Shown: positions 31,627-64,000 of the stretch, in pieces
Layout: each line of letters starts with the position of its first letter
Numbering within the stretch: position 1 is the stretch's first letter
Virus record (IMG/VR): IMGVR_UViG_3300035698_014446
Coordinates: 28,206 to 92,205 of that record
DNA length: 64,000 bases
Direction: 5' to 3' (one strand)
From: a virus
The notes under the pieces: model-generated
The model's database searches: none
Told to the model about the DNA's origin: nothing
The model's input: the letters and a program-made list of their open reading frames with translations, nothing else
Program-made: the position numbers and the translations under genes

Positions 31627-32260
31627 TAATTTTGACAGACTCAAAAAATTAGCTGGTGGTGGTTATACATGTAATTGTGACAGCGTTACACATATGGTAT
31701 GTGTTGGGTGTATGGCTAATAATGCTTTACGTGATTTGTCCATTAAGGCTTCTGAAAAGTTGGCTGAGATTAAAGAATGTCATCCGGATGTAATTATACC
31801 CATGTAACGGAGAAAAAATGGCAAGGGTAACTAACTGTTCCACAAAATGTATATATCGTTTAGTTTGTGAGGTGGACGGGTATATAGATAAATTGGTTAC
31901 TGGTTAAGATGGAAGTAATCAATGGTTAGTACATATAGTATTTCGGAATAATTGTGTAGCAATTCGAGAATCTGCTTTGTTTCGTTAGAAAATAAAGTAT
32001 GATTCGAGAATATTTTCAACCTTAAAAGGTGTATTTTACGTTCTATAAGGTATATTTTTATATCTCATATACGTTCTAATATATCTTTATACCCATTTAT
32101 GTTGAAAATATTTGTACTCCAGTTATAGTTTTATTATTGCCTACATATATATATACTCAATGTTGACCCGGTATTTGTCAATATTCAGCACCGTCCGTTC
32201 TCTTACCCCGGTCCCGGCATCTGCGCGGCTGAGTCTGCGCCGCCGCCCGGCTTCCCGCCC

Positions 32261-32628
32261 GCGCGCTCCCCGTCCGGCGCGCGCCCGCGCTGCTCTGTGC
32301 GCATACGTCTAGCGCGCCTCGGTGCGATGCACGACTCGGCGCGCTGGTCTTCCCCCGCACCTGTCCGGCGCGCCTCGGTGTGGGGTCTGGCTGGGCGCGC
32401 CGGTCCGCCGTCGCCGCCCGTCCGGCGCGCCCGCCTTCCGTGCGCGCTTGGGCGCGCCGGTCACTTGTTCAAGGTGTCTCCTCGCGCGCTCCGGGTTGGC
32501 GCTCCAATCCGTGTCTCGCGCGCCGCCCTGCCAATGCCGCCTGCGCCAGCCGGGTAGCCCTGCCGTCCCCACCAGCTGAGCACCGCTAACCTGAACGCAC
32601 CAACCGGACCCCCGCCAATCGGGCGCGC
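32261..32628. repeat. Array of ~12 GCGCGC-core motifs with ~27-34 bp spacing (iteron-like), A-depleted on the + strand
   Basis: GCGCGC at 32261, 32277, 32312, 32339, 32368, 32395, 32425, 32442, 32452, 32484, 32518, 32623. Confidence 0.7.
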
Positions 32629-32640
32629 TCTGTTGGGAAA

Positions 32641-33150
32641 AACCAGCCAAGCCGAAAAAAGGCGGGTTGGCAAAACAAAAAGCCAAGCCAAGCCAAACCA
32701 TACCCCCGCTCTCCACCAACCACGCACCCCCCGCCAGCGCAAGCGGGCACGAGGAAATGCTACACGCCAAGGCGAAAAACCAGCCCCCACCGGGAAAAGC
32801 TAGCCGGGAAAAGCCACACCCGGTTACGCAAAGCCAGCCGTTGGGACGAAAAGCCAGCCTTTGCCAGCAAAGCCCCCGCTGAGGAAACGCGCCAACCGAG
32901 GCAGAGAGCCACTAAACCGGGTGAAGCCCCACGGAAAAGGGGCCGCCGCACCCACACCCATAGGGCCGCCGCACCGACGCAAACACCCCCGCCGCACCAA
33001 CACCATCGCCCCCCGCCGCAACCCCGCCCAACAGACCGAGAAGCACCCACCCGCGCCAACAACGCCCGGCAAAGCGAAACGGAAACACAAAACCCGAGAG
33101 CCGAGGCCGAGCGATAAGGCCGAGCAACAAGGCTGAACCGCCAAAGCGGG
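32641..33150. other. T-depleted, probably non-coding GC/A-rich tract with AAGCC(A) and GCCGCACC repeats
   Basis: 21 T in 32641-33120 (480 nt) by hand count. Confidence 0.75.
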
Positions 33151-33323
33151 TTAAGTTGTGTGGCGTCCGCACCACGCCGCTCCACCGCACGGGAAGCCGC
33201 GCCCGGGGCCAAGAATCACCGGGGCGTCGCCCCCACCTCGACCGCGCCAACGTAGACGGGAAGCCAAAGGAAGGGCCACGCCGAGGTCGAGGACAGGGCA
33301 ACACACCAAGACGGGCGCAGAAA

Positions 33324-33362
33324 TGTGGTCCGCTCGACACATCGCGTAGTCCCGACACTACG
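33324..33362 (+). promoter_or_regulatory. Tandem upstream activator-like palindromes (TGT-N12-ACA and CGT-N12-ACG) for promoter 1
   Basis: tgtggtccgctcgacaca (33324) and cgtagtcccgacactacg (33345), 21 bp apart. Confidence 0.55.
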
Positions 33363-33413
33363 CCACCGGACCGCGCACCCCCTCTCCTGGCCTCCCGTGA
33401 AGGGTACGCGCTC

Positions 33414-33428
33414 TGGCACGCGGGTTGC
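33414..33428 (+). promoter_or_regulatory. sigma54 (RpoN) -24/-12 promoter 1
   Basis: TGGCACG-CGGG-TTGC, followed by tcttttttagg. Confidence 0.85.
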
Positions 33429-33497
33429 TCTTTTTTAGGTGGGGGCCGCCCACCGGGCGGCTCCCGCCGCCCCCCTGTCGGGGGCGGACCACGAATC

Positions 33498-33535
33498 GGG
33501 GCCACCCGTCCCCACGAGTCGGGCAGAATAGGAGC
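33498..33535 (+). ncRNA. 5'-UTR pseudoknot motif copy 1 with SD
   Basis: P1 gggg/cccc, P2 cccg/cggg, loop acgagt, then cagaataggag. Confidence 0.6.
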
Positions 33536-33542
33536 ACCAACC

Positions 33543-34016
33543 ATGACCACAAAACAAACGAACGAAGAAAGGGCCGCCGCACACCGTGCCGCCGCCACCG
33601 AACACGAAGCCCGTGCTGCCGGACCCGCCACAGGAGGCCGGACCGACAACCACGAAGCCCGCGCCGCCGAACACCGGGCCGCCGCCCAAACACACACAGC
33701 AGCCGCCGCCGCACAACGAACAGCAGCCGCACCGGCAACCAGCACCGAGAAAAAGTGCACCGACGCCAACGCCGCCGACGTCACAACGACACACGCCACC
33801 GACGCCACGCTCGCCGCCGCCGACGCCCGCAACGGCGTACCGGCAACCAGCACCGAACAAGCCGCCGCCGGAGCCGCCGCCGAAGCCGCAGCGGCGCAGA
33901 ACGAAGCCGAGCGCCAGACGGACCGGGGTCGCCCCGACCATGCCGCTCGCGCCCGGACCGAAGCCGCCGAAGCGCACGATGCAGCAGCAGCACATCACCG
34001 CACCGCCGCCGAGTAG
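33543..34016 (+). CDS. Ala/His/Thr-rich early protein encoded almost without T
   Basis: AGGAG RBS, first gene after promoter 1, 14 T in 474 nt, HRAAA repeats. Confidence 0.75.
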   Translation: MTTKQTNEERAAAHRAAATEHEARAAGPATGGRTDNHEARAAEHRAAAQTHTAAAAAQRTAAAPATSTEKKCTDANAADVTTTHATDATLAAADARNGVPATSTEQAAAGAAAEAAAAQNEAERQTDRGRPDHAARARTEAAEAHDAAAAHHRTAAE

Positions 34017-34136
34017 CACAACAGCCCCGCCCCTCGGCCAGCGAGCCGGGGGGCCGTCGGGCCAGCCCCCGCAACAGCGGGGGCGAGCCCGGCGCGACCG
34101 AGCGACCCGCACAAGCGGGAAGCCGACGACGCCAAA

Positions 34137-34177
34137 CGGGACCAGTCCGGACCCGACCAAACCGGGCAGAACAGGAG
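34137..34177 (+). ncRNA. 5'-UTR pseudoknot motif copy 2 with SD
   Basis: P1 cggg/cccg, P2 gtccgg/ccgggc, then agaacaggag. Confidence 0.6.
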
Positions 34178-34185
34178 CAACGATC

Positions 34186-34755
34186 ATGGGAACCAGACAA
34201 AGCAAGAACAGCACAGGCCGCAAGGCCACAGAGGCCAAAACAGGAACCGCAACCCCCAACACGATCAGCAAGGCCACGCCGCCGAGCGCACCCGCGCCGA
34301 CCCCCGCCGAAACCACCGTGCCCACCTCATCGGTCGTCGATGTCCGCGACCTCTCAGTTGCCGAGCTTCGACTACTGCTGACAGAGGCCAAAACACGCGA
34401 AGCTCCCGCCAAGGCCGCAGCCAAAGGACAGGCTAAGCTCGCCAAACTCCGGACCTATGCGGTCCGGCAGCGGGCGTGGGCCGAGTCGCAGACTGCCAAA
34501 GCTAGCACGGCGTGCGACCGGGCCGACAAGGCCGAGGCCGCACTGGCGACCTACGAGGCCAAGTTGGGCATCGACCCCGCGACGGAGGCCGAAATCGCCG
34601 CGACTCTCGCCGCGCTGATCGCCTCCGGGCGAGTCGTACAAGTCGATTCGTCCTCTCTCGTCGGGCCAGAGCCGGAGGGGACCGAGGCTGAGACCGCAGT
34701 CGCCGACGTCGAAACCGCCAAGACCGACGACAAGGCCGACTCCGCCGCCGCGTAG
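34186..34755 (+). CDS. Early coiled-coil protein, GC-rich paralogue of 37239-37847
   Basis: LSVAELRLL...KLAKLRTYAVRQRAWA...YEAKLG...GRVVQV aligns without gaps to the paralogue. Confidence 0.85.
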   Translation: MGTRQSKNSTGRKATEAKTGTATPNTISKATPPSAPAPTPAETTVPTSSVVDVRDLSVAELRLLLTEAKTREAPAKAAAKGQAKLAKLRTYAVRQRAWAESQTAKASTACDRADKAEAALATYEAKLGIDPATEAEIAATLAALIASGRVVQVDSSSLVGPEPEGTEAETAVADVETAKTDDKADSAAA

Positions 34756-34975
34756 TGCGGAACCAGCTCCACCGACGCCCCCGCCTCGTGCGGGGGCCAT
34801 CGGGCCGACGCCCCGACCAACCGGGGGCGTCCGCCCGGTGACGGACCGCCAACGGGGACGGTGCACGTCCGCTGCGAGCGGACGCCGCCTCCGGGGGCCG
34901 ACTGCGCCTCCGCTACGAGCGGGGAGCGTCGGGGGCCAGCGCGCGAGCGCGGGCCGCCCCGCCAAGGCGGGCGAA
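34756..34975 (+). other. Cluster of about six GC-rich stem-loops in an intergenic spacer
   Basis: e.g. gcccccgc/gcgggggc, gacgcccc/ggggcgtc, cgtccgc/gcggacg. Confidence 0.55.
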
Positions 34976-34982
34976 CAGACAC

Positions 34983-35019
34983 GGGCACGGGTCCGCCCAC
35001 GAACGGCCCAGAACAGGAG
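34983..35019 (+). ncRNA. 5'-UTR pseudoknot motif copy 3 with SD
   Basis: P1 gggc/gccc, P2 gggtc/ggccc, loop acgaa. Confidence 0.6.
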
Positions 35020-35027
35020 CAAGAACA

Positions 35028-35288
35028 ATGGAACACGAACAAGAACAGAAAAGAGCAATCGTTATCAGCTATCGCGAGCTGTACAAGCTTGGTATGCCCA
35101 ACGACGAGATACACGGTATTCTCGTTGTGGGACACGACAAGTGGGCAGCTATCGGGGCTACGGTTGACCTCTACATGGATCCCAACGAAAACACAGCGTA
35201 TCTCGTCGTCCGGGGTGTTAGCGAAGCAATCATAGCGCTAGTACACGAAATGACTGACCAAATGATAGACATCAGCTACACTGACTAA
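35028..35288 (+). CDS. Hypothetical early protein
   Basis: AGGAG RBS and pseudoknot leader. Confidence 0.7.
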   Translation: MEHEQEQKRAIVISYRELYKLGMPNDEIHGILVVGHDKWAAIGATVDLYMDPNENTAYLVVRGVSEAIIALVHEMTDQMIDISYTD

Positions 35289-35399
35289 GCAACAACCGAA
35301 TAATCAACAACTAACGTTTCCCCGGCTTGCCGGGGCCACCGGGTCATCATCCGCGTATGCGGGCATCCGCTCGGTGTGTAGGTGTACACCAAACCAAAC

Positions 35400-35436
35400 G
35401 GGTATGGACCGGCCCACGAATGGTCCAGAACAGGAA
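35400..35436 (+). ncRNA. 5'-UTR pseudoknot motif copy 4
   Basis: P1 gggt/gccc, P2 tggacc/ggtcca, loop acgaa. Confidence 0.6.
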
Positions 35437-35444
35437 CAGGAACC

Positions 35445-35939
35445 ATGAGACACAAACAGAAACAGGCGCAAACAACCACCTCAATGCACATTGATGCAGC
35501 ACAGGCACTTGACGCGTTGGCTACTGCTACTGATGATGCAGAACAGACCGCATCATACGTCGCTGATGCCGCTGAACACCGCCGCGCTGCCAGTGTAGCT
35601 AATCAAGCCACAGTTGTTAACAACTTGGTTAAACAAGCACAAAAGCAAGATAACGCAACAAAGGCTGCAGGTGGTATCGGGCATATTGCAGTAGCAACCG
35701 AACATCGTGTCGCTGCTGCCGCACATGATCAGGCAATGAAAAATGAGTTGGTGGAGCACATTAACGGACCAGATATAACCATCGAAGAAGTAATTGCCCT
35801 GTACAACGTGTTAGCACAGAACGAAATCCTTGAAAAAAGAGCATTGGATGACATGGTGGAAGAGATAGTGGAACATCTTTCCGGCGGTGACGTTACTAAG
35901 GAAGAAGTAATACGAATGTATTGCACATTAACGGAATAA
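35445..35939 (+). CDS. Ala-rich early protein related to 33543-34016, with a duplicated C-terminal motif
   Basis: AAEHRRAA and TEHRVAAAAHD. ELVEHINGPDITIEEVIALY repeated as EIVEHLSGGDVTKEEVIRMY. Confidence 0.65.
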   Translation: MRHKQKQAQTTTSMHIDAAQALDALATATDDAEQTASYVADAAEHRRAASVANQATVVNNLVKQAQKQDNATKAAGGIGHIAVATEHRVAAAAHDQAMKNELVEHINGPDITIEEVIALYNVLAQNEILEKRALDDMVEEIVEHLSGGDVTKEEVIRMYCTLTE

Positions 35940-36020
35940 AAACCACGTTAGCGGTAAATAGCGTTAACGTGCTGTGTGTACGTTGTGTTAAAACAACATG
36001 TATCAATGACTGTTGATGTA

Positions 36021-51552: not shown

Positions 51553-51909
51553 TCATCGTTTATCATGTGCTAAAACCCATAAATCAATCATTTTGTTCAT
51601 TTCTACACCTATAGAATGTATCAACGACGAATTAACATCGTCTCTTGGCTCAAATATCTGATGTAGATATTTATCATATAATACTTCCCAAGGTACACCA
51701 TACTGTAATGCTATACTTATGGTTATGGCAAAAGCTTCGACAAATCCAGATATGGCACTACCTTCTTTAGCCACAGTAACAAACAATTCCATCGGTTGTA
51801 CGTCTACGAAATTAACCGTCAGATAATACGTAAGGCCACACGCATCTACCCGTTTGGTTAGCCCAAATCTCACCTCTGGTAATTTGGTCCTATTACTTCC
51901 GTGTTTCAT
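51553..51909 (-). CDS. Stand-alone TSCPD-domain protein (class II RNR C-terminal domain)
   Basis: CG..YYLTVN...PMELFV...KEGS...ISIALQYGVP...FEP. Confidence 0.8.
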   Translation of the reverse strand: MKHGSNRTKLPEVRFGLTKRVDACGLTYYLTVNFVDVQPMELFVTVAKEGSAISGFVEAFAITISIALQYGVPWEVLYDKYLHQIFEPRDDVNSSLIHSIGVEMNKMIDLWVLAHDKR

Positions 51910-53631
51910 ATTGTCTATTTCCTTTTTCACCATTACATCTTTATCAAATCCCACATTGGCGTCCCATAACAAGTCTCATGCCAGTCCGGAACACCAAATC
52001 TGTCATTATGATCTAATTCTCTTTTACCGCACCTCTTACATTTTCTCCAGTGTGGTGGAAATCCCGATAAACCGTACTCTTTCCACAGATGATCTCTTTT
52101 TAGCTTACACCATATCGGAGCAAGATAGATGCGCTCAATTATATCCACACATTTGTAGTACTGATCTTTTATCCACAGAAATTCAGGGACATAAAACGAA
52201 ATATGTATTGTTTTCTTTTTCATTTCCTTTTCCAATGTACCCTTCTGTTAAAATGTCTCCCCCGATTCATTGGCGGCGCACCAGCACGAAACTGATTTGT
52301 ACGCAGACTACGATTTATTCTTACTTTGTTTCTTTTGACAAATACTGGAGTCCAGTATATAATAGATAATATGTACTCGTCCCAACACTTGCAATATATA
52401 GTTCTTACTACAGCACCGAACGCTTCCAGAGCAAGCATCGCTTCCTCTATACTGGCAATAAGCTTTGCAAGGTCAGATTCAAATTCCCTAACTACCTCTA
52501 CAACAATAGTTCCATCAGCTATTCCATTGGCTATTTCACTGTCTGTATTTGCAGTACCATCATCACTTAGAGGATTCATAGCAATCATTACCAACTCCTT
52601 TAGCGAGATTCATATATTATTTCGGCAAAGCAATCATCGCACTGATCATCACCACATGATAACCCGTTATTAAAATGCTCAGTTGCCAATTTACCGCATT
52701 TACATTGCTTAAGGGAGCCTTGAACCATACCACCTAACACACCCGAATCACAGGTACACTATGCGTATCCGTTAGTCGGACATGGCGGCTGGTGTTTTAC
52801 CATTTCGAAGTCTATCCGTTTTCGTCCTTGTCCTGATGCCCCTGCGGTAAAGGGTGTTCACCCAACATCGTTTCGGTAACCGTCGGTTCGATACTGGATT
52901 GTGCCTGCATTTCCGCAATTACACCCTTTTCGATAGCGGTGTTCTTGTTAGCGGTGGACAATACCCGTTTCGCATAAAGAACACGTGTTTTGAACTCCAA
53001 CGTATTCGTCCCTTTGTCGCTACCCTTAAGCATAGGCTCATCACTTGCTAGCCTTTTTAATGCCTCTTGAAGTCGCGCTTGTATGTTCATCATTTAACCT
53101 TTCAAAACTGGAAAGTGGACAACCGTTAGATAAATCCACCTTCCATGATCACATTCATTTAATCATTCGTCGAAACAACAACAAATAATGGTCGCTAATA
53201 ATGCATAATACACCTCTCTTTCTGCATTTTAGAATCTCCATTTCCATTTCCACTTACCGCCACCAGCATACAGCAGTAGCTGGACGTAAAATCTAAAAGC
53301 CCACAATATCAAGAATATGATGATCAGTAATGGTCCGGATAGCAACGCAGCAATTAATCTTTTAAATTTCGTCCATGTACTACATTCGTGCCACATTCTC
53401 CTATCACTACGCATTCTTATCCCATCGTCCGGCCTAACCATCTTCTTTTCTCCTAAAATAGATACATTCTTCACTGATAATCCTATACATTTTATCAGTA
53501 GGTCCCGTCCGTGACGTAGGCTTAAATATCTTTATGTGTCTTTTTAACGACTTAATCAGTTTATCAATAATCTTACATATACAAAAATGTATGCAATCTT
53601 TGCATGTCTTATTTTTTCCCACTTTTTCTCT

Positions 53632-53952
53632 CTAAAAATTATATACAATATAACATTGTATTATATGCCACAACTGATCAAGATAAAAGTACCATGTTGG
53701 AAAACTTTTATCTTTAGGTAACCGTTTTCTGGAATTAAAGACCCACTGATCACAAATAACATGACCTAAAAATAGAAAGTAAAATTTCCAATCAGCCATT
53801 CGATCTTGGTATTGTAGTGCGGTACAGATGCAAAATGTCCATATCATACCATGACATAACATAGTATACCGGTACTTACCTTTGTTAAGGGCAATCCATT
53901 CTTTTTGTAGGGCAAAATCACCTATATAGTGTGCAAAAATTAACCAAATCAT
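53632..53952 (-). CDS. DUF3307 membrane protein
   Basis: AHYIGDFALQ...H...H...D...DQLWH. Confidence 0.85.
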   Translation of the reverse strand: MIWLIFAHYIGDFALQKEWIALNKGKYRYTMLCHGMIWTFCICTALQYQDRMADWKFYFLFLGHVICDQWVFNSRKRLPKDKSFPTWYFYLDQLWHIIQCYIVYNF

Positions 53953-53955
53953 ATT

Positions 53956-54252
53956 TTACCAATCTAATGCGTTTGAATCAATACAAGCTATAGCAAAAGT
54001 ACAAGATACGCCTAAATCTTCTAATTCCTTTTTTACTTCTATTAACGATTTTCCGTGAACTGCATCAATCAGTTCATCATACTCTTCAACGATTATTCCC
54101 AACAATTCGTGTCTTGACAACCACGCACCCGCTCCCTTTTCTTGAAGTCTCATGCGTAATTTAGTAAGTACTTTTGAATGCGCCACACGAATAGTTTCAT
54201 CTTTTATTTGTGACCGGTGATCTTTGTCGCTCCTTTTTTGAGTCTTACTCAT
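53956..54252 (-). CDS. MazG-like nucleotide pyrophosphohydrolase (MazZ candidate)
   Basis: EEYDEL...KELED all-alpha NTP-PPase motif, 98 aa. Confidence 0.7.
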   Translation of the reverse strand: MSKTQKRSDKDHRSQIKDETIRVAHSKVLTKLRMRLQEKGAGAWLSRHELLGIIVEEYDELIDAVHGKSLIEVKKELEDLGVSCTFAIACIDSNALDW

Positions 54253-54845
54253 GTTTTTCTACCTATCACATTAACAGAAAATCTAACTCGTTTCCTTTCC
54301 CCCGGCTTTATTTCAAAACCGAACAACCGTTTAAAAGCAGAAGAACAGAGGCGGAAATATTTAGGTAAATTAAACACTTCATCTTTTCCTATAACCACAT
54401 CACCCACCCCACCAATTACAACATATCTCATTACCTCTTTACCATACGATATTGTACTACCTATTCCCTTATACCGAACTTTTACATCCGTATATTCAAT
54501 CGGTTGTGGAAATTGATTATAGTCCCACACATCATAACAAGTATCCCCGCCACTGTCCCTCGTTATCCAAAAAGTTTTAGTTTTTGCTTTTTGTGTCTTA
54601 CTCATTTTGGTTCCACCACCCAACTAACATCAATCTAGTACAATTTTCCCGTTTTAAAATTAGCTATATACAATCTTCTTTGGTAGCCTATACGATTAAG
54701 TATATCACCTGTCTGTACAACGCCGTCCGTTTTTCTTCGAAATTTTACCATATCCCCAACTTTGAATAATCTACAAAATTTAGCATTTGTAGTTGTTTTT
54801 GCTTCCTCTTCTCTTTCAAGAACTTTTTTGTATTCAATCCAATTT

Positions 54846-56105
54846 TTATTCATGTTTTTTCTCCAATGGGTCCCACACATGTTGTACGGCAAAATCAACC
54901 GCCAAATCTCTTTTCTTGTGAGCCTCACTGTCCCGCACCTTAGACGTAAACAATGATATACTTCCTCGTTGTTCGTCCTCAAGTGTACGACCAAATCCAA
55001 TAACTATATCCGGACTTTCCATAGAACCCCATGATTCACCAGCATGCTCATAACCAATTACATCTTTACCTACTTGTGTCTTATTTACCTGTCTCGCTGT
55101 CCAGTGTACTAATTTCATACTTTTAGCCATCTGTTTACAGTCTTCAAATATTTCCCGTAATGCGTGTCGTGGTTCGTTGTTTCTTGTCATAGCCTTGAAT
55201 CTGTCTGCGTAATCAGTAACAACCAAATCCACTTTTCTTTCCCTTACTTCCTCCACTGTCCTTATGAAGGCTGCTGCGTCACTAACGGTTGATATTCTGG
55301 TAGACAAATCTTTGATTTCACAAGAACCGCCGTATTTCACCAAAAATCTGGTTCTTTTACTAAGAGATTGCTTGTGTTTATTAGCCAAATCCTTCTTTGT
55401 CATTCGACAGATCGTTTGCATTATGCGTCGTTTGATCTTACGTTCTCCATCCTCAAACGTGAAATATACCACCGACTTACCTAACAGTAATGCGTGTCTA
55501 ATAATGTTACATAATACTGTAGTCTTACCTCCACCTATCACGGTGAGTACTACACACAAATCGCCTATTTCTGGTCCACCCTCCAGTTGGTCATTAAGCC
55601 ACCCCCAAGGTGTGGGTATAACTTCTTTTCTTTCATGCTCGGTGTCTTTGTCCAAAGAAGTATGAGAGAATAATAAGTCGTCCCCAACCTTGGAGGCTCG
55701 TTGGATACTATCGGCTAATTCACTTGGGTTTTTGATACCTAAATTCAGTATGTCTTCAATAGCTGTCCATTTTGCCCAATTGAGTATTCTGTCCTGTATA
55801 TACTCTATATTTTCACATGGTTCTGCACCCTCAATTATACCAATGGCGTCTGCTTTATTCCTGAACAAACTCCTCCTGATCATATCGGATAAAGTACCGT
55901 TTATGGGGTGTTCACCATACTGTTCATAATATTCGTGTACTGTACGAACTATGAATTTGTTTGTGTCGTCTATAAATGCATCCGAACTTATTACAGACTT
56001 GAACTTACCCATAAACTCTGGGTTTTTTAGCACAGCCTGAATTACAGTCTTCTCAAAATCAGGTCCTAATTCCTGATTGCCATACCCAACGATCTTGTCT
56101 TCCAT
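54846..56105 (-). CDS. Replicative DnaB-like helicase
   Basis: GGGKTT, FTFE, VTDYAD, TARQVNK, KVR. Confidence 0.9.
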   Translation of the reverse strand: MEDKIVGYGNQELGPDFEKTVIQAVLKNPEFMGKFKSVISSDAFIDDTNKFIVRTVHEYYEQYGEHPINGTLSDMIRRSLFRNKADAIGIIEGAEPCENIEYIQDRILNWAKWTAIEDILNLGIKNPSELADSIQRASKVGDDLLFSHTSLDKDTEHERKEVIPTPWGWLNDQLEGGPEIGDLCVVLTVIGGGKTTVLCNIIRHALLLGKSVVYFTFEDGERKIKRRIMQTICRMTKKDLANKHKQSLSKRTRFLVKYGGSCEIKDLSTRISTVSDAAAFIRTVEEVRERKVDLVVTDYADRFKAMTRNNEPRHALREIFEDCKQMAKSMKLVHWTARQVNKTQVGKDVIGYEHAGESWGSMESPDIVIGFGRTLEDEQRGSISLFTSKVRDSEAHKKRDLAVDFAVQHVWDPLEKKHE

Positions 56106-56117
56106 GGCTTCCTTAGA

Positions 56118-56573
56118 TTAGTTTTTTGTAGAACCGAATCCTTTCTCTCCACGAACAGTCTCCGGCATTTCCTCCTCAACTACTGTTAACACCGGAGTGG
56201 CAACAATTATTAGTTGCGACAGACTTTCCCACGGTTTAATCAATACCGGTCTGTCAATATGCATAAGATTTGGATGCCAAACAAATGAAAATATAGGTCC
56301 GGTGTACCCACTATCTATCAGGCCGCCTACCACGAACAGCTTTTTCTTAAAGAACGTGGATGATCTTGCCCGGACCAGTCCACAGAATCCGTCCGGGATT
56401 TTAACCCGTATTCCGGCATTAACCTGTATGCTCTGGTATGGTGCAAGGGTTAATGTTTCATCTGTAGCATTAAACAGATCAAACCCGGCATCACCTTTCA
56501 AAGCTTTACTAAATTCTGCTCTGTCACGTACTTCATCGTTATCGTATTGAACAATTATCTGCGGATTACTCAT
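56118..56573 (-). CDS. dut: Trimeric dUTPase-fold protein
   Basis: DAGFDL, RSS, GLIDSGYTG, SQLII, RGEKGFGST. Confidence 0.85.
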   Translation of the reverse strand: MSNPQIIVQYDNDEVRDRAEFSKALKGDAGFDLFNATDETLTLAPYQSIQVNAGIRVKIPDGFCGLVRARSSTFFKKKLFVVGGLIDSGYTGPIFSFVWHPNLMHIDRPVLIKPWESLSQLIIVATPVLTVVEEEMPETVRGEKGFGSTKN

Positions 56574-57214
56574 ATTTGCATTTCCTTTATTGACAAAGCT
56601 TTATAGTTCCCAGAAGCAATCATCTTCTTTGTTAATTGGTGTATTTCAATCATCGATGCTCGGTCTGTGTCGATTCTCTGTTGCAAGAACTCTTTTTCCT
56701 CACTACTACCACACAAGGCCATCCGCCCACTGATTCTGTCTTTGTGGTCGTTCTCGTCCACGTACAAAAATCGCATTTCAACATTTACGTTCCGCGTGGA
56801 CGCGAAAGAACTGTTCATCAACCACAATAACTGTTGTGGCTTTCTGGGGAATGAATCAGTTATTACATCCATGTCATTATAATACGCAAGATTCATAGCG
56901 TGGTGCATCATGCTATTTACCCAATGATCTGTCGCCTCCGGAGAACCCGGATTAGGCAAATCCTTGAAAAATTCAGCACCCACTGTCTCTCGGAAGAATC
57001 TACCTATACTTAAGGTAAGTGGTCTATTTTTCCCTTCGTACTCCGACGCATACCGACCATCCAGATCGGCGATAGCTCTCATATACGTTGTTTTTCCTGA
57101 ACACGCTACGGCATTCAGACAAATTAAATTTATACCCTTCATAACATCCTTTCCTGTACTAAGAGGCGCTGGAACATAGCCGCAACTTTTACAATCATCG
57201 CGTGAATCAACCAT
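56570..57214 (-). CDS. Adenylate-kinase-like nucleoside monophosphate kinase
   Basis: ACSGKTT P-loop, SIGRFFR, DSFPR..QQ (DGFPR in AK). Confidence 0.75.
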   Translation of the reverse strand: MVDSRDDCKSCGYVPAPLSTGKDVMKGINLICLNAVACSGKTTYMRAIADLDGRYASEYEGKNRPLTLSIGRFFRETVGAEFFKDLPNPGSPEATDHWVNSMMHHAMNLAYYNDMDVITDSFPRKPQQLLWLMNSSFASTRNVNVEMRFLYVDENDHKDRISGRMALCGSSEEKEFLQQRIDTDRASMIEIHQLTKKMIASGNYKALSIKEMQI

Positions 57215-57220
57215 GGTGCA

Positions 57221-58375
57221 TCAATCCTCTATATATTGAAATTCTTCATTTTTCATAAATCGGTCATGTCCGCACTGTATACAACTGTCATGCTTATCGG
57301 AAATCGTACCACATTGACAACACTTCCAGTCCATCACTCGAAGTACTCTCATATCCTTGTTCATCGCCCCGGTCCCCAACAGCGTCAGCTTACATCCGTG
57401 GTCCGCCAGCAGTTTTCCCTTATCACTCAAAAACTCTTCCAATTCGTGCTGGTTGATGTAATTAACGAAATTCAGGAACGCGTAATCCGGTTTTACCGCA
57501 CACAAGAACCGTTCAACCTGCTTGTCCGACCATGTAAACAATCGGCGAATCCGTTTAGTTACCGTGGTCCTCTCTTCCACATTCATCCCAATCTTCGCAC
57601 TCAAATCAACCCACGTCATTTCGTGCTGATCATGGTAGAAAGGGCCGCTGGTCCCGCCGGGGGTATTACCTACTCGTATGGGGTAAGTCCTGAGGCTTGC
57701 GAAGATGGAACCGCAATCCTTCACGCTTACTCCGGCGTTATCCAGCACCCTTCCCACCATGCAATCTCTGCTCGTGCAATACGGCCACTCGAATCCGTTG
57801 TTTAGCCCAAGGTCAAAACCTTGTGCTGTCTCCAGTAACGCTGTCTTGCCGTGCTTGAGCAGTCTCTGCATCAACTTATGTGTATCGCATACAAACTCTC
57901 TCAGTTTGGGATTATCTTTAGCCAAATGCGCCTTTTCTGGACTTCTCCACATTTTCCTAATCACTGACGCACAGCTACCCTGCATAGTACTGGATATGCT
58001 GTTTAGTTCTTCTCGCTCCGTAGCTGCGTCTGCATCACACAAAACGGTTACTAACGGGTGTATATGTAGTGAAAATTTCCTCGTTGCAAACTGTTCACGC
58101 AACAATTCCTCAAAAACCCTTGCTTCCTGAATCACTGCGTGGGGACCGACGATCACATTTTCTATGTAATCAAAACTTATTGCCGATGGTAGGGCTTTGG
58201 TGATGTGTGATACCCCATCATCACTTACATATGTATGCCCGGCGTTCGGCATGAAATCACACACAGCGACGGTTATTTCTGGATACGTATTATACAAATA
58301 TGCAGCCAATTTTCCTTTTCCAGTTGACCCCCACTGTCCATCGATAATCACGTTGGCTTTTCCTGTTTGAATCAT
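57221..58375 (-). CDS. purZ: N6-succino-2-amino-2'-deoxyadenylate synthase (PurZ)
   Basis: GQWGSTGKG (Ser in place of the PurA catalytic Asp), PNAGHT, YCTSRD, RTYPIRVG, TTVTKRIRR, LNFVNY in place of PurA TKLD. Confidence 0.92.
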   Translation of the reverse strand: MIQTGKANVIIDGQWGSTGKGKLAAYLYNTYPEITVAVCDFMPNAGHTYVSDDGVSHITKALPSAISFDYIENVIVGPHAVIQEARVFEELLREQFATRKFSLHIHPLVTVLCDADAATEREELNSISSTMQGSCASVIRKMWRSPEKAHLAKDNPKLREFVCDTHKLMQRLLKHGKTALLETAQGFDLGLNNGFEWPYCTSRDCMVGRVLDNAGVSVKDCGSIFASLRTYPIRVGNTPGGTSGPFYHDQHEMTWVDLSAKIGMNVEERTTVTKRIRRLFTWSDKQVERFLCAVKPDYAFLNFVNYINQHELEEFLSDKGKLLADHGCKLTLLGTGAMNKDMRVLRVMDWKCCQCGTISDKHDSCIQCGHDRFMKNEEFQYIED

Positions 58376-58406
58376 TTCATCAGTTCCTTTTTACGAAAAA
58401 CTTATT

Positions 58407-59570
58407 TTATGCCTTAATCACGGCTAACGGTTTTAGTTCAACCACTATATCTACTAAATCTTTTTGATTTTCCATGACAACTGTTATATCTTTATACGCG
58501 CCGGATGCCTCATCCAAATCTGTTACTGATCGAATAGAATGGATAATGTTGGAATCATTGAGAAACTTAATTTCTTTCTCAAGATCAAGTTCACGCCTTG
58601 CTTGATTCCTGCCCATTTTTCTACCAGCACCGTGGGAACAAGACATAAAACTATCACGACAACCCTTACCCTTAACAATGTAACTTGATGTACCTTGTGA
58701 CCCAGGTATTATTCCAATTTCACCATCTTTGGCGGACGTTGCACCCTTACGATGAACTATAACATTTTTACCAAAATGATTTTCCCACCGAGCATAATTA
58801 TGGTGTACATCAATTGGGGAATCGTTAAAATTTTCTGATGTTGGTCCATCGAGGCAGTACTCTACTTTTTTCATCATTAATGCTCTACTATTTTTTGCAA
58901 ACATTAGTGCGTAATTCATAGCCTCTATGTATTCTTTAGCTTCGTTTGTTTCTATCGGTAGAAACGCAAGACCATCCTCACCTTTACAGACAGGAATGTT
59001 AGAATACCATCTTTCACAAAGTGATTGTGCGATTTTGTTGTACTCTTTAGCTATTTTAAGTCCGAAATTACGACTTCCGGAATGAAGCATTATCCATATA
59101 TAACCATCAGACCCCTGTTGTATTTCTATAAAATGGTTTCCACCACCAAGCGTCCCCATCTGCTTTCTCGCTGACGCAAGTTGTTTTTGTATTACTGGTA
59201 TATCTGGTGCGACAGCAAACCCCGACCAGTATTGGTTTTCTTTATGATGATTGAATCCTAACGGTATTACTTCTCTAATAGCAGACATAACCATCTTTAA
59301 TTCTGCAGTAGTAATAGATTTTCTGGCAGTTTTAACAGCACACATACCACAACCAATATCCACACCTACCGCGTTAGGAATTACTACGCCGTTTGTGGCT
59401 AAAACTCCTCCTATTGGCATGCCGTACCCTCTGTGAGCATCCGGCATTATAGCTACGTGTTTAAACGTAAATGGGAGATTTGCTAAATCTATAGCTTGTT
59501 TCACAGCCCCATCCTCAATGTCGTCTAACCACATTTTTATAGGTTTGCTCTCTGTTATTAATACTTTCAT
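58407..59570 (-). CDS. rtcB: RtcB RNA ligase
   Basis: MPDAHRGYG, VGVDIGCG, GTLGGGNHF, HSGSR, HRKGA, SHGAGR, DEASGAYKDI. Confidence 0.95.
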   Translation of the reverse strand: MKVLITESKPIKMWLDDIEDGAVKQAIDLANLPFTFKHVAIMPDAHRGYGMPIGGVLATNGVVIPNAVGVDIGCGMCAVKTARKSITTAELKMVMSAIREVIPLGFNHHKENQYWSGFAVAPDIPVIQKQLASARKQMGTLGGGNHFIEIQQGSDGYIWIMLHSGSRNFGLKIAKEYNKIAQSLCERWYSNIPVCKGEDGLAFLPIETNEAKEYIEAMNYALMFAKNSRALMMKKVEYCLDGPTSENFNDSPIDVHHNYARWENHFGKNVIVHRKGATSAKDGEIGIIPGSQGTSSYIVKGKGCRDSFMSCSHGAGRKMGRNQARRELDLEKEIKFLNDSNIIHSIRSVTDLDEASGAYKDITVVMENQKDLVDIVVELKPLAVIKA

Positions 59571-60193
59571 TTTCCACTCTTTAGTCTTTCTACCATTTTA
59601 TTGAAACCACAAGTACATTTAAATGGCTTATTATCAAGTCTTGGCATACGATTTATATGACAATTTGTTTCGTGTCTCATATACCTTTTTACATCTTTTA
59701 ACTGTCTTCGCATTATTAACCACGATATACAGATAGAGTATCCTTCCTCGTCAAATGCTTGTCTACACCCACTCTTGTAGTATTTAACCATCGAAACTAA
59801 TACTTTAAGTACTTTCACTGGTATCCCTCATACAACACTGAACACATTCACCCATACCTATTATATGTATTTTACCAAAGGGCATATTTGATTCTTTCGG
59901 TCAACATGTTATCACCGATTTACGTTTACAGACATATTCATCCATCCCGTCTTCATTCACGTCCCCTACATTATGTGCATGTACACAATCAGCCATTTTT
60001 CTTTCTCACTATGACAGGATAAGAACCATGTTCGTCTATCCTGATAATAGTCCATGTTTTACCATTACTCGGTAATACTACATCATCCCCCACTTTTGGC
60101 CACCCATCAAATAACACCGTTCCTTCCGGTTCTGGGGCGTCGTCCGGATACTCACACATTACGCCAAGACCAATTTTCATACTATTATCCTAT

Positions 60194-60239
60194 AAAAAAT
60201 GGCAAGCGTGGGCAACTTCCGGTTAACCCACGCCGCCAC
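60194..60239 (-). terminator. Rho-independent terminator downstream of the SSB gene
   Basis: Stem tggc..gcgtggg/cccacgc.gcca followed by T5 on the minus strand. Confidence 0.65.
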
Positions 60240-60382
60240 CCGTACGAGGATACATTTATCGCTCCGTCGCTATCTCGCATGCAGTAGCACATTTGCTACT
60301 GTACTCACACTTTGCACATTCCTTGTCTTTCAAATCGAAACATGCAGGGTTCCCCAAACACATCGGGGCCTGTTCGTCACCA

Positions 60383-61492
60383 TCAAAAGTCACCCGCCGT
60401 TAAGGCAAGTTCCTCCAACTTGACATCGTACTGCTCACTGTTTCCATCTTCGATAACGACATCATTACCGTCAATACTCTTTACGGTGCTGATTTCCTTT
60501 TCGCCGTCGTAATGGACTTCGGAACCTACTTTAATTTTTGGCTTCGGTTCAGGCTCTTCTTTAACGTAGAGCTTCAACTGGTTCATCGTCGCGTCGTACT
60601 CATCACCCTTCTCGTCCTCAATAACTACGTAGTCGCCGTCTACCTTGTTGACATGGTAGACAACTTCTTCGTCTTCATAGAGAACAGCCACACCGACATC
60701 AATCACGTTCTCGTCGGCAGGATGGTCTGGCTCAGAAGTCTTGTTCTTCTTGGATTTGGTTTTGGCCTTTGTAGTCTTGGACTTTGCGGTCTTTGAAGTC
60801 TTAGCTTTGGCCTTACTACCGCCTTTAGCCTTGTCTTTCTTACCCGCCACCTCAAGTTCCGCGTCGTCGAATAATTCACCGACTTTGTAGCCCAATTCCT
60901 CACATTGTGACTTAAGGCCTACGTCACCGAAATCACCAAGTGGGTCCGATACCTGTTTCATCAATGCTGGACTTACCGGCCACGGTTGTCTCTGTGGCTT
61001 TGCGGTGTAGGTAGTATCGAGTCCCGAACCCTCACGCTTGCAATTCAAAGCTGTACCGGGTTTCGGTTCCAGAATATCCGCCCAATCCTCGTCCATAACG
61101 TACTCTGCTACTTGATCATATAAGGTAGTGGGTAGCATCCACTTTCTTACGGACGGTTGTTGATCGTTAATGTCAACGCCGTTCACCGTGTACCTTGTCC
61201 GTGTGTTGTACAACAGTTCATCACCGGCATCACGTCTTTTCTTGTTCACCTGACAGAAAGCACACGGTTCACCGAATGTTTGCTCCCTGCAGACACCAAG
61301 AGCTTTGCCACCCTGCGCATTGACCTCGCGGTGTTCAGAAAAAGGACGTGCGAAAATATTCTCGCCTTCCTCATCCTTAAATTCAAGGATTCTTAGGGTG
61401 GTAGTAGAATCCTTCTTAAGGTATCGAAACTTGCCCGATCGCTGTTTACTGTCGGCCATCTGTTTCTTAACCTTGTCCCTGTTAACAGCCAT
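60383..61492 (-). CDS. gp32-like single-stranded DNA-binding protein with two C-terminal acidic SH3/Tudor-like repeats
   Basis: LRIL...H...C...PCAFC, KREGSGLDTTY, Lys-rich linker, duplicated I.VG..V.Y....V..VDG..VVIED..G.Y. Confidence 0.7.
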   Translation of the reverse strand: MAVNRDKVKKQMADSKQRSGKFRYLKKDSTTTLRILEFKDEEGENIFARPFSEHREVNAQGGKALGVCREQTFGEPCAFCQVNKKRRDAGDELLYNTRTRYTVNGVDINDQQPSVRKWMLPTTLYDQVAEYVMDEDWADILEPKPGTALNCKREGSGLDTTYTAKPQRQPWPVSPALMKQVSDPLGDFGDVGLKSQCEELGYKVGELFDDAELEVAGKKDKAKGGSKAKAKTSKTAKSKTTKAKTKSKKNKTSEPDHPADENVIDVGVAVLYEDEEVVYHVNKVDGDYVVIEDEKGDEYDATMNQLKLYVKEEPEPKPKIKVGSEVHYDGEKEISTVKSIDGNDVVIEDGNSEQYDVKLEELALTAGDF

Positions 61493-62190: not shown

Positions 62191-62493
62191 CTACCCTTTC
62201 AACAGAAACTCTTTTATAGTTTCGGCGTGACACCTTTTCGGTACACACCAACAGAATAATCTCAACTTTCCAAATTTTTCGTATACCTGCTTCATATCAT
62301 CCAAATATTTCATACACCTTTTATCGTTTATTACTGTACTAACGAACCAATCCTCATATTGATCACACACTTTATTACGATTTTCCTCTCCAGCAAGTAC
62401 AAAAGGATTACCTATGGGCGATCTTCTATCAACAACTATATCCCACGGGTGAGTAGGGCTACTATTCCCCATATTTTTTATTTCTATATTCAT
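62191..62493 (-). CDS. DUF4326 protein
   Basis: VDRRSPIGNPF...R..VCD.YE.W...LFCWCVPKRCHA. Confidence 0.9.
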   Translation of the reverse strand: MNIEIKNMGNSSPTHPWDIVVDRRSPIGNPFVLAGEENRNKVCDQYEDWFVSTVINDKRCMKYLDDMKQVYEKFGKLRLFCWCVPKRCHAETIKEFLLKG

Positions 62494-62981: not shown

Positions 62982-64000
62982 TTACGCTGCCTCCTTCAAT
63001 TCTTTATAGTTGGGACCAGTAGTTATGTCTATTTCCATAGGAACTGGTTTATCTCTCCAATAATCTTCTGTGTTATGAATTAACATTCCTTCATTTACCG
63101 CCTGCATTACTTGTCTCTGGTGCGACTTTTTAAAGTCAACTATTATACTATCATGAACTGTGCCAACCACTAATGCTGGTAGTTTTCTCTCTTTAAATAA
63201 ATCCATCACTCTACACATACCTATCAAACAAAAATGATTTCCAGTTGACTGAATTGGGTAATTGCTTGCTTGTCTCTCCGCTCTCTCTTTTAACATTCTA
63301 TTAGACAGCATCGCATTCGGAAGATGTCTTGTACCACTGAATAGATCGTGTGATTTCCCTGTTCTACGTGCTATCTTGTGAAATTTCACTCTGAAATCTT
63401 TTATACCACCAAATCTTTCAAAGTATACTTTTTGTAATTCTCTTGCATGTTCAAGGGAAATACCGGCTGCCAATGCTAACCCTTCTGGAGTTTGACCGTA
63501 CATCTGACCAAGATTCATCCTCTTACCTAATTGCCTTTGTGTGAAATTCACATCTTCATACAACACATTGTGTATCTTCGCGGCAACGAATTTATGTAAA
63601 TCAAATCCTCCATTCAGTGCCTCACACATAGCTGGGTCTTCCGACCATCCCGCGAGAATCCTCGGTTCAAGCTGTTTGTAATCTGCACTTAGTATTAACC
63701 CAAACTTACCAAATCTTGACGAGAAAACGATCTTTATTATAGATTCAGTCGGTATATTCTGCAGATTTGGTTCTGTAGAAGATAGTCGCCCGGTGAGAAC
63801 TACGTCCTGATTATAATTGGTATGTACACAACTATTCGGTCCTGTAAAAGTTTCCCATTTCTCAATAAAACCAGAGAACATTGCATTAATCGATCTAAGT
63901 GCGTTCAAATCCTTTACTATCGGGTGTGATTCCTCAAAGGGTTCTAACGCTCTTTTATCAAATGAAAAACTCTCTGATTTAACTCCATCTTTCCATTTGA
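62982..64000 (-). CDS. polA: Family A DNA polymerase, C-terminal part (starts beyond the right edge), DpoZ candidate
   Basis: TGRLSS..PNLQNIP, motif A DYKQLEPR, motif B RQLGKRMNLGQMYG, NYPIQ, motif C VHDS. Frame open to the window edge. Confidence 0.93.
   Translation of the reverse strand, partial: KWKDGVKSESFSFDKRALEPFEESHPIVKDLNALRSINAMFSGFIEKWETFTGPNSCVHTNYNQDVVLTGRLSSTEPNLQNIPTESIIKIVFSSRFGKFGLILSADYKQLEPRILAGWSEDPAMCEALNGGFDLHKFVAAKIHNVLYEDVNFTQRQLGKRMNLGQMYGQTPEGLALAAGISLEHARELQKVYFERFGGIKDFRVKFHKIARRTGKSHDLFSGTRHLPNAMLSNRMLKERAERQASNYPIQSTGNHFCLIGMCRVMDLFKERKLPALVVGTVHDSIIVDFKKSHQRQVMQAVNEGMLIHNTEDYWRDKPVPMEIDITTGPNYKELKEAA

Follow-up and report, generated by a model that had tools for sequence, protein, structure and literature searches.

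A PurZ-type locus in an environmental virus genome couples the synthetase to a candidate dZMP kinase and a DutZ-like dUTPase

The stretch of viral DNA analysed here (the window, 64,000 nucleotides) covers bases 28206-92205 of the 92,205-bp IMG/VR virus record IMGVR_UViG_3300035698_014446 and contains a purZ gene followed by genes for a kinase of the adenylate kinase fold, a trimeric dUTPase-fold protein (Dut), a replicative helicase and a small MazG-like protein. We propose, with a probability of roughly 0.6, that these genes form a genuine PurZ-type operon for the supply of 2-aminoadenine (Z) nucleotides within the replication module of the phage, in a variant undescribed in the cultured PurZ phages. 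The most interesting element of the locus is the kinase, which represents an undescribed, PurZ-bound family and which, judging from its linkage, its gene fusions and its fold, is most likely a phage kinase for the Z deoxynucleoside monophosphate (dZMP).

Results

Layout of the locus

The genome, rated 100% complete by CheckV, carries a direct terminal repeat of 127 bp and has a G+C content of 40%. The unusually high Z load foreseen in a preliminary description of this DNA comes down to its A+T content of 60%. The same description had listed five genes at this locus, and their positions and common strand hold:

57221-58375, minus strand: purZ, N6-succino-2-amino-2'-deoxyadenylate synthase of the PurZ type, 384 amino acids (aa), assigned from Pfam, PHROG, NCBIfam, PDB and a tree
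56570-57214, minus strand: nucleoside monophosphate (NMP) kinase of the adenylate kinase fold, candidate dZMP kinase, 214 aa (from ATG 57214) or 190 aa (from ATG 57142)
56118-56573, minus strand: putative trimeric dUTPase-fold deoxynucleoside triphosphate (dNTP) pyrophosphatase, DutZ-like, 151 aa (PF00692, 1.1e-13)
54846-56105, minus strand: DnaB-like replicative helicase (PF03796, 1.1e-10; phrog_19, 1.2e-50)
53956-54252, minus strand: small MazG-like, putative all-alpha NTP pyrophosphohydrolase, 98 aa

Between the PurZ stop codon and the first ATG of the kinase there are six bases, and the kinase stop and Dut start share the four nucleotides ATGA, the overlap that had been described. The genes for purZ, kinase and Dut lie in a minus-strand block of replication genes that also holds the helicase, a single-stranded DNA-binding protein (SSB), the polymerase and a primase. 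The helicase is interposed among the nucleotide genes, a position that it shares with the helicase of another environmental locus, L008.

The synthetase is assigned to PurZ

The product of purZ matches PF00709 (3.8e-26) and phrog_1211, '2-aminooxy adenylosuccinate synthetase' (1.2e-55), and its best solved relatives are the PurZ proteins of phiVC8 (6fm1, 1.2e-52) and S-2L (7odx, 8.3e-39), as against 9.4e-17 for the best PurA. Residues were compared through an alignment with Vibrio phage QH PurZ, in which the quoted residues stand at the phiVC8 positions, and their roles were taken from the literature (bioRxiv 10.1101/2025.10.22.683976). In this alignment S17, T270, F303 and Y306 correspond to S14, T262, F295 and Y298 of phiVC8 PurZ; a serine thus stands at the position of PurA Asp13, and the Phe/Tyr pair that stacks on ATP is kept. 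The position of phiVC8 F12 is occupied by W15, as in E. coli PurA. F303 and Y306 sit in the motif LNFVNY, where PurZ0 has Met/Gln, while E. coli PurA has TKLD further upstream. A careful maximum-likelihood tree of 62 sequences contains a branch (support 97/92) that separates a PurZ group of 56 rows, made up of this protein, 51 other environmental sequences and four cultured ones, from PurZ0 and the PurA-like proteins. The PurZ signature read in the preliminary description is thereby joined by a placement on the PurZ side of the tree, and by these sequence comparisons the gene is a PurZ, neither a PurZ0 nor a PurA. Homology and the signature residues predict dGMP as its substrate; PurZ-type enzymes use ATP or dATP as phosphate donor (bioRxiv 10.1101/2025.10.22.683976).

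At its C-terminus the protein also has a tail of about 35 residues (window 57221-57330) that resembles a zinc ribbon, its two CxxC pairs reading CCQCG...CIQCG. The tail is missing from most homologues, whose length is 345-360 aa.

A kinase of the adenylate kinase fold follows purZ

Searched alone, the kinase has no Pfam or PHROG match (the Pfam gathering score is not reached), and its sole match is a weak one to TIGR01351 adk (9.4e-5). The family is rare: a word-indexed search brought up two relatives among 5.8 billion proteins, and a profile search at E<=1e-3 brought up only 87 among 1.84 billion cluster representatives; no homologue was found by tblastn at E<=1 among 50,697 deposited phage genomes. 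Among 26 relatives that were aligned, 21 match PF00406 at E<=0.01 (best 6.3e-10), and the profile of this alignment matches Aquifex Adk, yeast uridylate kinase and AK1 in the PDB at 4e-10 to 1e-8, with the P-loop, the NMP-site Arg and DGFPR...Q in register between the profile and the solved Adk and UMP-CMP kinases. In 190-aa numbering, K17, R51, D96, Q104 and R136 are invariant in the alignment and R100 and R140 nearly so, within a family consensus of GVxCxGKTT, GxFFRE and DGFPRxxxQxxWL. The altered motifs AVACSGKT (P-loop) and DSFPR that had been remarked on are indeed present, but they are minor variants of this lineage that keep all adenylate kinase catalytic residues; the Ser of DSFPR is confined, within the alignment, to this protein and its closest relative. 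A conserved segment specific to the family, NPxAPxxTExWV, occupies the NMP-binding region in place of the Adk segment. The homologues start near M25, which makes ATG 57142 a candidate for the true start; a purine-rich stretch lies upstream of both ATGs.

An AlphaFold (AF2) model built from the 26-sequence alignment has a mean predicted local distance difference test score (pLDDT) of 95.1 and a predicted template modelling score (pTM) of 0.90; a model from three sequences (pLDDT 38.5) was not used. Foldseek places the UMP/CMP kinases 5ukd and 1uky first, then AK1 and short-LID adenylate kinases, with a probability of 1.00. By alignment and predicted model, then, the protein is an adenylate-kinase-fold NMP kinase. 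It shares with the short-LID adenylate and UMP/CMP kinases (Aquifex Adk 2rgx/4jlo, 1uky, 5ukd, AK1 2c95/1z83) the fold (Foldseek E ~1e-6, template modelling score 0.6-0.65) and the catalytic set of P-loop Lys, NMP-site Arg, DGFPR...Q and LID Args, but is only 13-20% identical to them, has its own segment in the NMP region, and occurs exclusively beside PurZ. Published pathways assign the phosphorylation of dZMP to host GMP kinase, the only kinase named in the metaGPA preprint (bioRxiv 10.1101/2025.10.22.683976). The reaction proposed here, dZMP to dZDP, is the same and both enzymes are P-loop NMP kinases, but the candidate is a phage gene of the adenylate kinase family and not a Gmk. A full-text literature search, with subscription journals outside its reach, found no paper on a PurZ-linked kinase, and the word kinase is absent from the NAR 2026 paper on DutZ (PMC12884076).

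The kinase is linked and in places fused to its partners

With the PurZ alignment, 68 IMG/VR loci were fetched and their open reading frames (ORFs) scored by local hidden Markov models. We counted 43 non-redundant loci, this genome included, in which the Asp13 position holds Ser and the DNA continues for more than 700 nt downstream. The kinase immediately follows PurZ in 35 of the 43, a figure that is no unbiased frequency and leans towards the kin of this PurZ, since the search patterns came from its relatives. The spacing is mostly -3 or -9 nt, so that the kinase gene mostly overlaps the PurZ stop. A trimeric Dut occurs in the flanks of 19 of these PurZ loci, DatZ in only two. The locus L008, whose kinase is 30% identical to this one, repeats the order UDG-PolA ... 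PurZ-kinase-Dut-DnaB-primase, in which UDG-PolA is a fusion of a domain of the uracil-DNA glycosylase (UDG) superfamily to a DNA polymerase. For the search in the reverse direction, with kinase patterns alone, the 26-sequence alignment was too diverse and smaller alignments were used instead. It returned seven Joint Genome Institute (JGI) metagenome loci; PurZ lies upstream of the kinase in all four that have upstream DNA, and Dut lies directly downstream in six of the seven. Chance falls far short of accounting for this link between kinase and PurZ, and the adjacency first noticed in this one genome recurs in most of the loci retrieved.

In L055 (11121-12125) the kinase is fused to a trimeric dUTPase in a protein of 334 aa encoded directly after PurZ. 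In L039-L045 (for example L041:11093-12235) it is fused to an all-alpha dUTPase_2 in proteins of 323-380 aa, again directly after PurZ. L038 and L046 encode the all-alpha partner in a gene of its own downstream of the kinase, with no gene between the two in L038. Because two unrelated dNTP pyrophosphatase folds have been joined to the same kinase, kinase and pyrophosphatase probably belong to one pathway, each acting on different nucleotides. The cultured clade that bears DatZ is surrounded in the PurZ tree by lineages with the kinase, and the earliest-branching locus is L055, with its kinase-Dut fusion; this hints that the pairing of kinase and PurZ is old, in a tree whose root lies on long branches.

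Other arrangements were also seen. L057 (9863-12014) has the order PurZ-Dut-DatZ and no kinase, and a sub-clade of PurZ-kinase loci (L017, L018, L021, L024, L027-L032) shows neither a trimeric Dut nor a dUTPase_2 partner within 10 kb; another pyrophosphatase may serve there.

Dut resembles the DutZ enzymes of PurZ0 phages

Dut finds matches in 806 deposited phage records, the best of which, at 38-43% identity and 1e-17 to 7e-22, come from phages of Microbacterium, Micrococcus and Arthrobacter; ordinary phage Duts match at 1e-6 to 1e-12. The phages with the best Dut matches are also among the PurZ0-type matches of the PurZ query. In a tree that sampled only eight ordinary Duts, a branch with support 87/92 separates seven of these eight from 18 PurZ-linked Duts, five Duts of PurZ0 phages and the Dut of a Moorella phage. 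The tree leaves out Archimedes gp53, which is annotated as a dUTPase and formed a long branch like a non-homologous protein.

The column of E. coli Met98, whose backbone probably contacts uracil, holds Phe or Tyr in 5/5 PurZ0-phage Duts, 16/18 PurZ-linked Duts and 0/8 ordinary ones; here the residue is F95. The two exceptions are the Dut of L057, which has Ser and adjoins DatZ, and that of L063, a locus without the kinase. The Ser in L057 fits the idea that Phe/Tyr goes with taking over the role of DatZ, and by itself the signature would be only a correlate of dATP and dGTP hydrolysis. The Dut-like enzymes of Ghobes and Wayne hydrolyse dATP, dGTP and dUTP, and these enzymes have been proposed to stand in for DatZ and MazZ in PurZ0 phages (Poubanne et al., NAR 2026, PMC12884076). 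By sequence this Dut is more like DutZ than like ordinary phage Duts, and the repurposed dUTPase fold suggested in the preliminary description has a published precedent.

DatZ is absent and the MazG-like gene falls below its family threshold

Profiles for DatZ (phrog_7076), YfbR-like proteins (PF12917) and HD domains (PF01966) match nothing at E<=10 anywhere in the full 92,205-bp genome, in a search that recovers Dut as a positive control; the absence of an HD-type DatZ, at first reported for the window, thus extends to the whole genome. Nothing credible came from tblastn of the genome with three DatZ proteins. A match of Bm1 DatZ to window 57164-57334 on the plus strand (E = 0.002) runs antisense to the kinase/purZ junction, has no HD profile and was put down to chance, and a match of ZP6 DatZ to the MazG-like ORF (E = 0.27) was rejected. 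The complete genome likewise has no match for NDT/DmtZ, DUF550 (PF04447) or dUTPase_2, nor for PurB, nucleoside diphosphate kinase (NDK) or ribonucleotide reductase.

In the MazG-like protein, E56, E57, E60, E76 and D79 (EExxE...ExxD) are invariant across five relatives. PF03819 reaches 18.9 bits, below its cut-off of 22, and all five members give sub-threshold MazG and PRA-PH matches. The best solved matches of the family profile are proteins of the MazG type, 2p06 (1e-3), then 7yh5, 2yxh and 1vmg, and the sole PHROG match is to phrog_9157, whose function is unannotated. No relative of the gene was found in the flanks of the other PurZ loci. A MazG-type fold is a reasonable assignment from these comparisons; a MazZ-like role would be a guess.

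Comparison with the cultured Z phages

The locus is akin to those of the PurZ-MazZ-DatZ phages (Vibrio phage phiVC8/QH, Alteromonas phage ZP6, Acinetobacter phage DMU1, Burkholderia phage Bm1 and cyanophage S-2L) in its type of PurZ, with Ser for Asp13 and the ATP-stacking Phe/Tyr, in its place in the same PurZ tree group at 35-42% PurZ identity, and in the family-A polymerase and replication genes that adjoin it. It differs from them in lacking an HD-type DatZ, phrog_9860 and a DUF550 MazZ, in having PurZ followed at once by the kinase and a trimeric dUTPase, in the different small MazG-like gene that lies 2 kb downstream, and in its UDG-PolA fusion polymerase, 26% identical to that of QH. 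With the PurZ0-DutZ(-DmtZ) actinophages (Gordonia phage Ghobes/Archimedes, Arthrobacter phage Wayne/Preamble and Microbacterium phages; PMC12884076) it shares a dUTPase-fold enzyme near the synthetase and the lack of DatZ; their DutZ proteins are the best deposited relatives of this Dut, and Phe/Tyr at the E. coli M98 column is common to both. The synthetase here is, in contrast, a PurZ (F303/Y306 against Met/Gln; the 97/92 split), the genome has no NDT/DmtZ, and the actinophage clusters that were fetched have no match to the kinase. The partner set is therefore atypical, as had been claimed, when set against the cultured PurZ phages, but not among the environmental PurZ loci retrieved, where it is the majority layout. 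These loci suggest that in the environment some other solution is commoner than the DatZ/MazZ set of the cultured phages.

Genomic neighbourhood

The genes that flank the locus are as follows:

window 62982-64000 and genome 3-1631 (L089), minus strand: UDG-PolA fusion, family-A DNA polymerase, spanning the contig ends
62982-64000, minus strand: C-terminal part of the family-A DNA polymerase (PF00476, 2.2e-71)
62191-62493, minus strand: DUF4326 protein
60383-61492, minus strand: gp32-like SSB (PF08804, 1.1e-10)
58407-59570, minus strand: RtcB RNA ligase (PF01139, 9.4e-107)
54249-54623, minus strand: 124-aa ORF
53632-53952, minus strand: DUF3307 protein

The N-terminal part of the polymerase, on L089, carries a UDG-superfamily domain (PF03167, 1e-13). 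The polymerase is about 26% identical to those of the phiVC8-like phages QH and ZP6, and a UDG-PolA fusion also lies upstream of PurZ in L008. As the family-A polymerase of this genome, it would be the enzyme that has to use dZTP, and the fusion may add one more type to the polymerases that work with Z-DNA.

The stop of the 124-aa ORF overlaps the start of the MazG-like gene by 4 nt; this ORF has no Pfam, PHROG or NCBIfam match, and an Atlas search gave no usable match. No terminator-like site was found on the minus strand within 53400-60400 and promoter-like sites are no more frequent than in shuffled sequence, so the boundaries of the operon are undefined. Megablast of the locus against deposited phages gave no match.

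Some further features of the region may be recorded. The RtcB RNA ligase gene, directly upstream of purZ and in the same orientation, may serve tRNA repair against host anticodon nucleases. The gp32-like SSB has a long Lys/Ala/Thr-rich, acidic C-terminal extension with two similar repeats. A stand-alone protein with a TSCPD domain, which is otherwise known as an attachment to class II ribonucleotide reductases, is encoded at window 51553-51972 on the minus strand (PF12637, 4.2e-8) in this genome without a ribonucleotide reductase match. Finally, window 32000-36000 is an island of 60-65% G+C with a strong AT skew in the 40% G+C genome.

Discussion

In the pathway that we propose, PurZ would condense dGMP with aspartate using ATP or dATP, as its homology and signature residues suggest, and host PurB would release dZMP. 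The adenylate-kinase-fold kinase, on the strength of its linkage, fusions and fold, would phosphorylate dZMP to dZDP, from which host NDK would make dZTP. The host PurB and NDK would be needed because the phage has neither gene, given the published pathway. Dut, translationally coupled to the kinase, would by its likeness to DutZ hydrolyse dATP, dGTP and dUTP; its removal of dATP would exclude A in place of the missing DatZ, and its hydrolysis of dGTP would feed PurZ with dGMP. The kinase would have to prefer dZMP over dAMP, because kinase and pyrophosphatase would otherwise cycle futilely. The MazG-like enzyme might act as a second dNTP pyrophosphatase, perhaps in a MazZ-like role from dGTP to dGMP.

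Several findings weigh against this reading. NF038379 (PurZ), a model that NCBI types as 'exception', is by far the best-scoring one for the synthetase (1.5e-63), yet its 214.8 bits fall below the curated cut-off of 300, and the census leans, as noted, to the kin of this PurZ. All five dUTPase motifs are kept in Dut, the ordinary Dut of the Moorella phage, a long branch, falls on the DutZ side with moderate support, and an approximately unbiased (AU) test leaves the monophyly of the Z-linked Duts unrejected (p = 0.29), which is no proof of monophyly. Given the UDG-like domain on the polymerase, plain uracil exclusion would be enough to explain Dut. The MazG-like protein stays under its family threshold, and its motif is in register with that of ZP6/QH MazZ in an hhalign comparison with E = 0.008 and a probability of 5%. 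The Gln of DGFPR...Q, which reads the N1/N6 face of adenine in Adk, is kept in the kinase and would fit dAMP as well as dZMP; for reading the 2-amino group there is at most a candidate, the conserved NPxAPxxTExWV segment.

Some of these points would be expected of a Z-genome phage whose purZ merely has housekeeping neighbours, namely a broad dNMP kinase, functionally like those of T4 and T5, that salvages the breakdown products of host DNA, a strict dUTPase guarding a uracil-sensitive replisome and a MazG for general house-cleaning, with dATP excluded by the selectivity of the polymerase and by the consumption of dATP by PurZ. Kinases for dNMPs are common in phages, the dUTPase motifs are intact, the polymerase bears its UDG-superfamily domain, and the replication module in which the genes stand also encodes helicase, SSB and primase. 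We nevertheless regard this as unlikely: a general kinase would not be confined to the place right after PurZ in both search directions and would be expected in some of the 50,697 deposited phage genomes, and Dut is nearest to the dATP- and dGTP-active DutZ and has the same Phe/Tyr, whereas the L057 Dut, which adjoins a DatZ, is without the signature. The kinase might also be a true (deoxy)adenylate kinase that disproportionates the dADP or ADP produced by PurZ (2 dADP -> dATP + dAMP), draining deoxyadenylate to dAMP and regenerating the phosphate donor. Its closest solved relatives are adenylate kinases, and the adenine-reading Gln is invariant. The donor of PurZ-type enzymes, moreover, is ATP or dATP, and DatZ, missing here, is said to remove both dATP and dADP (bioRxiv 10.1101/2025.10.22.683976). 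This explanation is quite improbable all the same, as hosts already own an adenylate kinase and the gain is unclear, as making dADP from dAMP would counter the exclusion of adenine, and as NPxAPxxTExWV in the NMP-binding segment points to a changed NMP substrate. That no Z-DNA is made at all, and that the PurZ-like enzyme, kinase and pyrophosphatases reshape host pools, for example in counter-defence or to deplete dGTP, would agree with the NF038379 score under its cut-off; we give it very little credence, since the residues that define the use of dGMP and ATP in phiVC8 PurZ are kept, purZ lies within a replication module beside the polymerase, and the PurZ group to which it belongs holds all four cultured Z phages sampled.

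Beyond the Z-nucleotide operon itself, we suggest tentatively, at odds somewhat short of even, that the kinase family as a whole consists of dedicated dZMP kinases that reject dAMP, and that PurZ, this kinase and a dNTP pyrophosphatase, either DutZ-like or all-alpha, make up a largely self-sufficient cassette. In view of the PurZ tree, this cassette may be both the ancestral and the commonest route to Z-DNA in nature, with the DatZ/MazZ set of the cultured phages a later replacement.

The locus would extend DutZ-like enzymes from the PurZ0 actinophages to PurZ-type phages. A phage kinase that travels with PurZ would, if confirmed, be a new enzyme in the Z pathway, in which published schemes rely on host kinases to turn dZMP into dZDP, and it would explain how Z phages can live in hosts with a guanylate kinase that copes badly with dZMP. 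It would also offer synthetic biologists who wish to make Z-DNA in cells a compact cassette of PurZ, kinase and pyrophosphatase.

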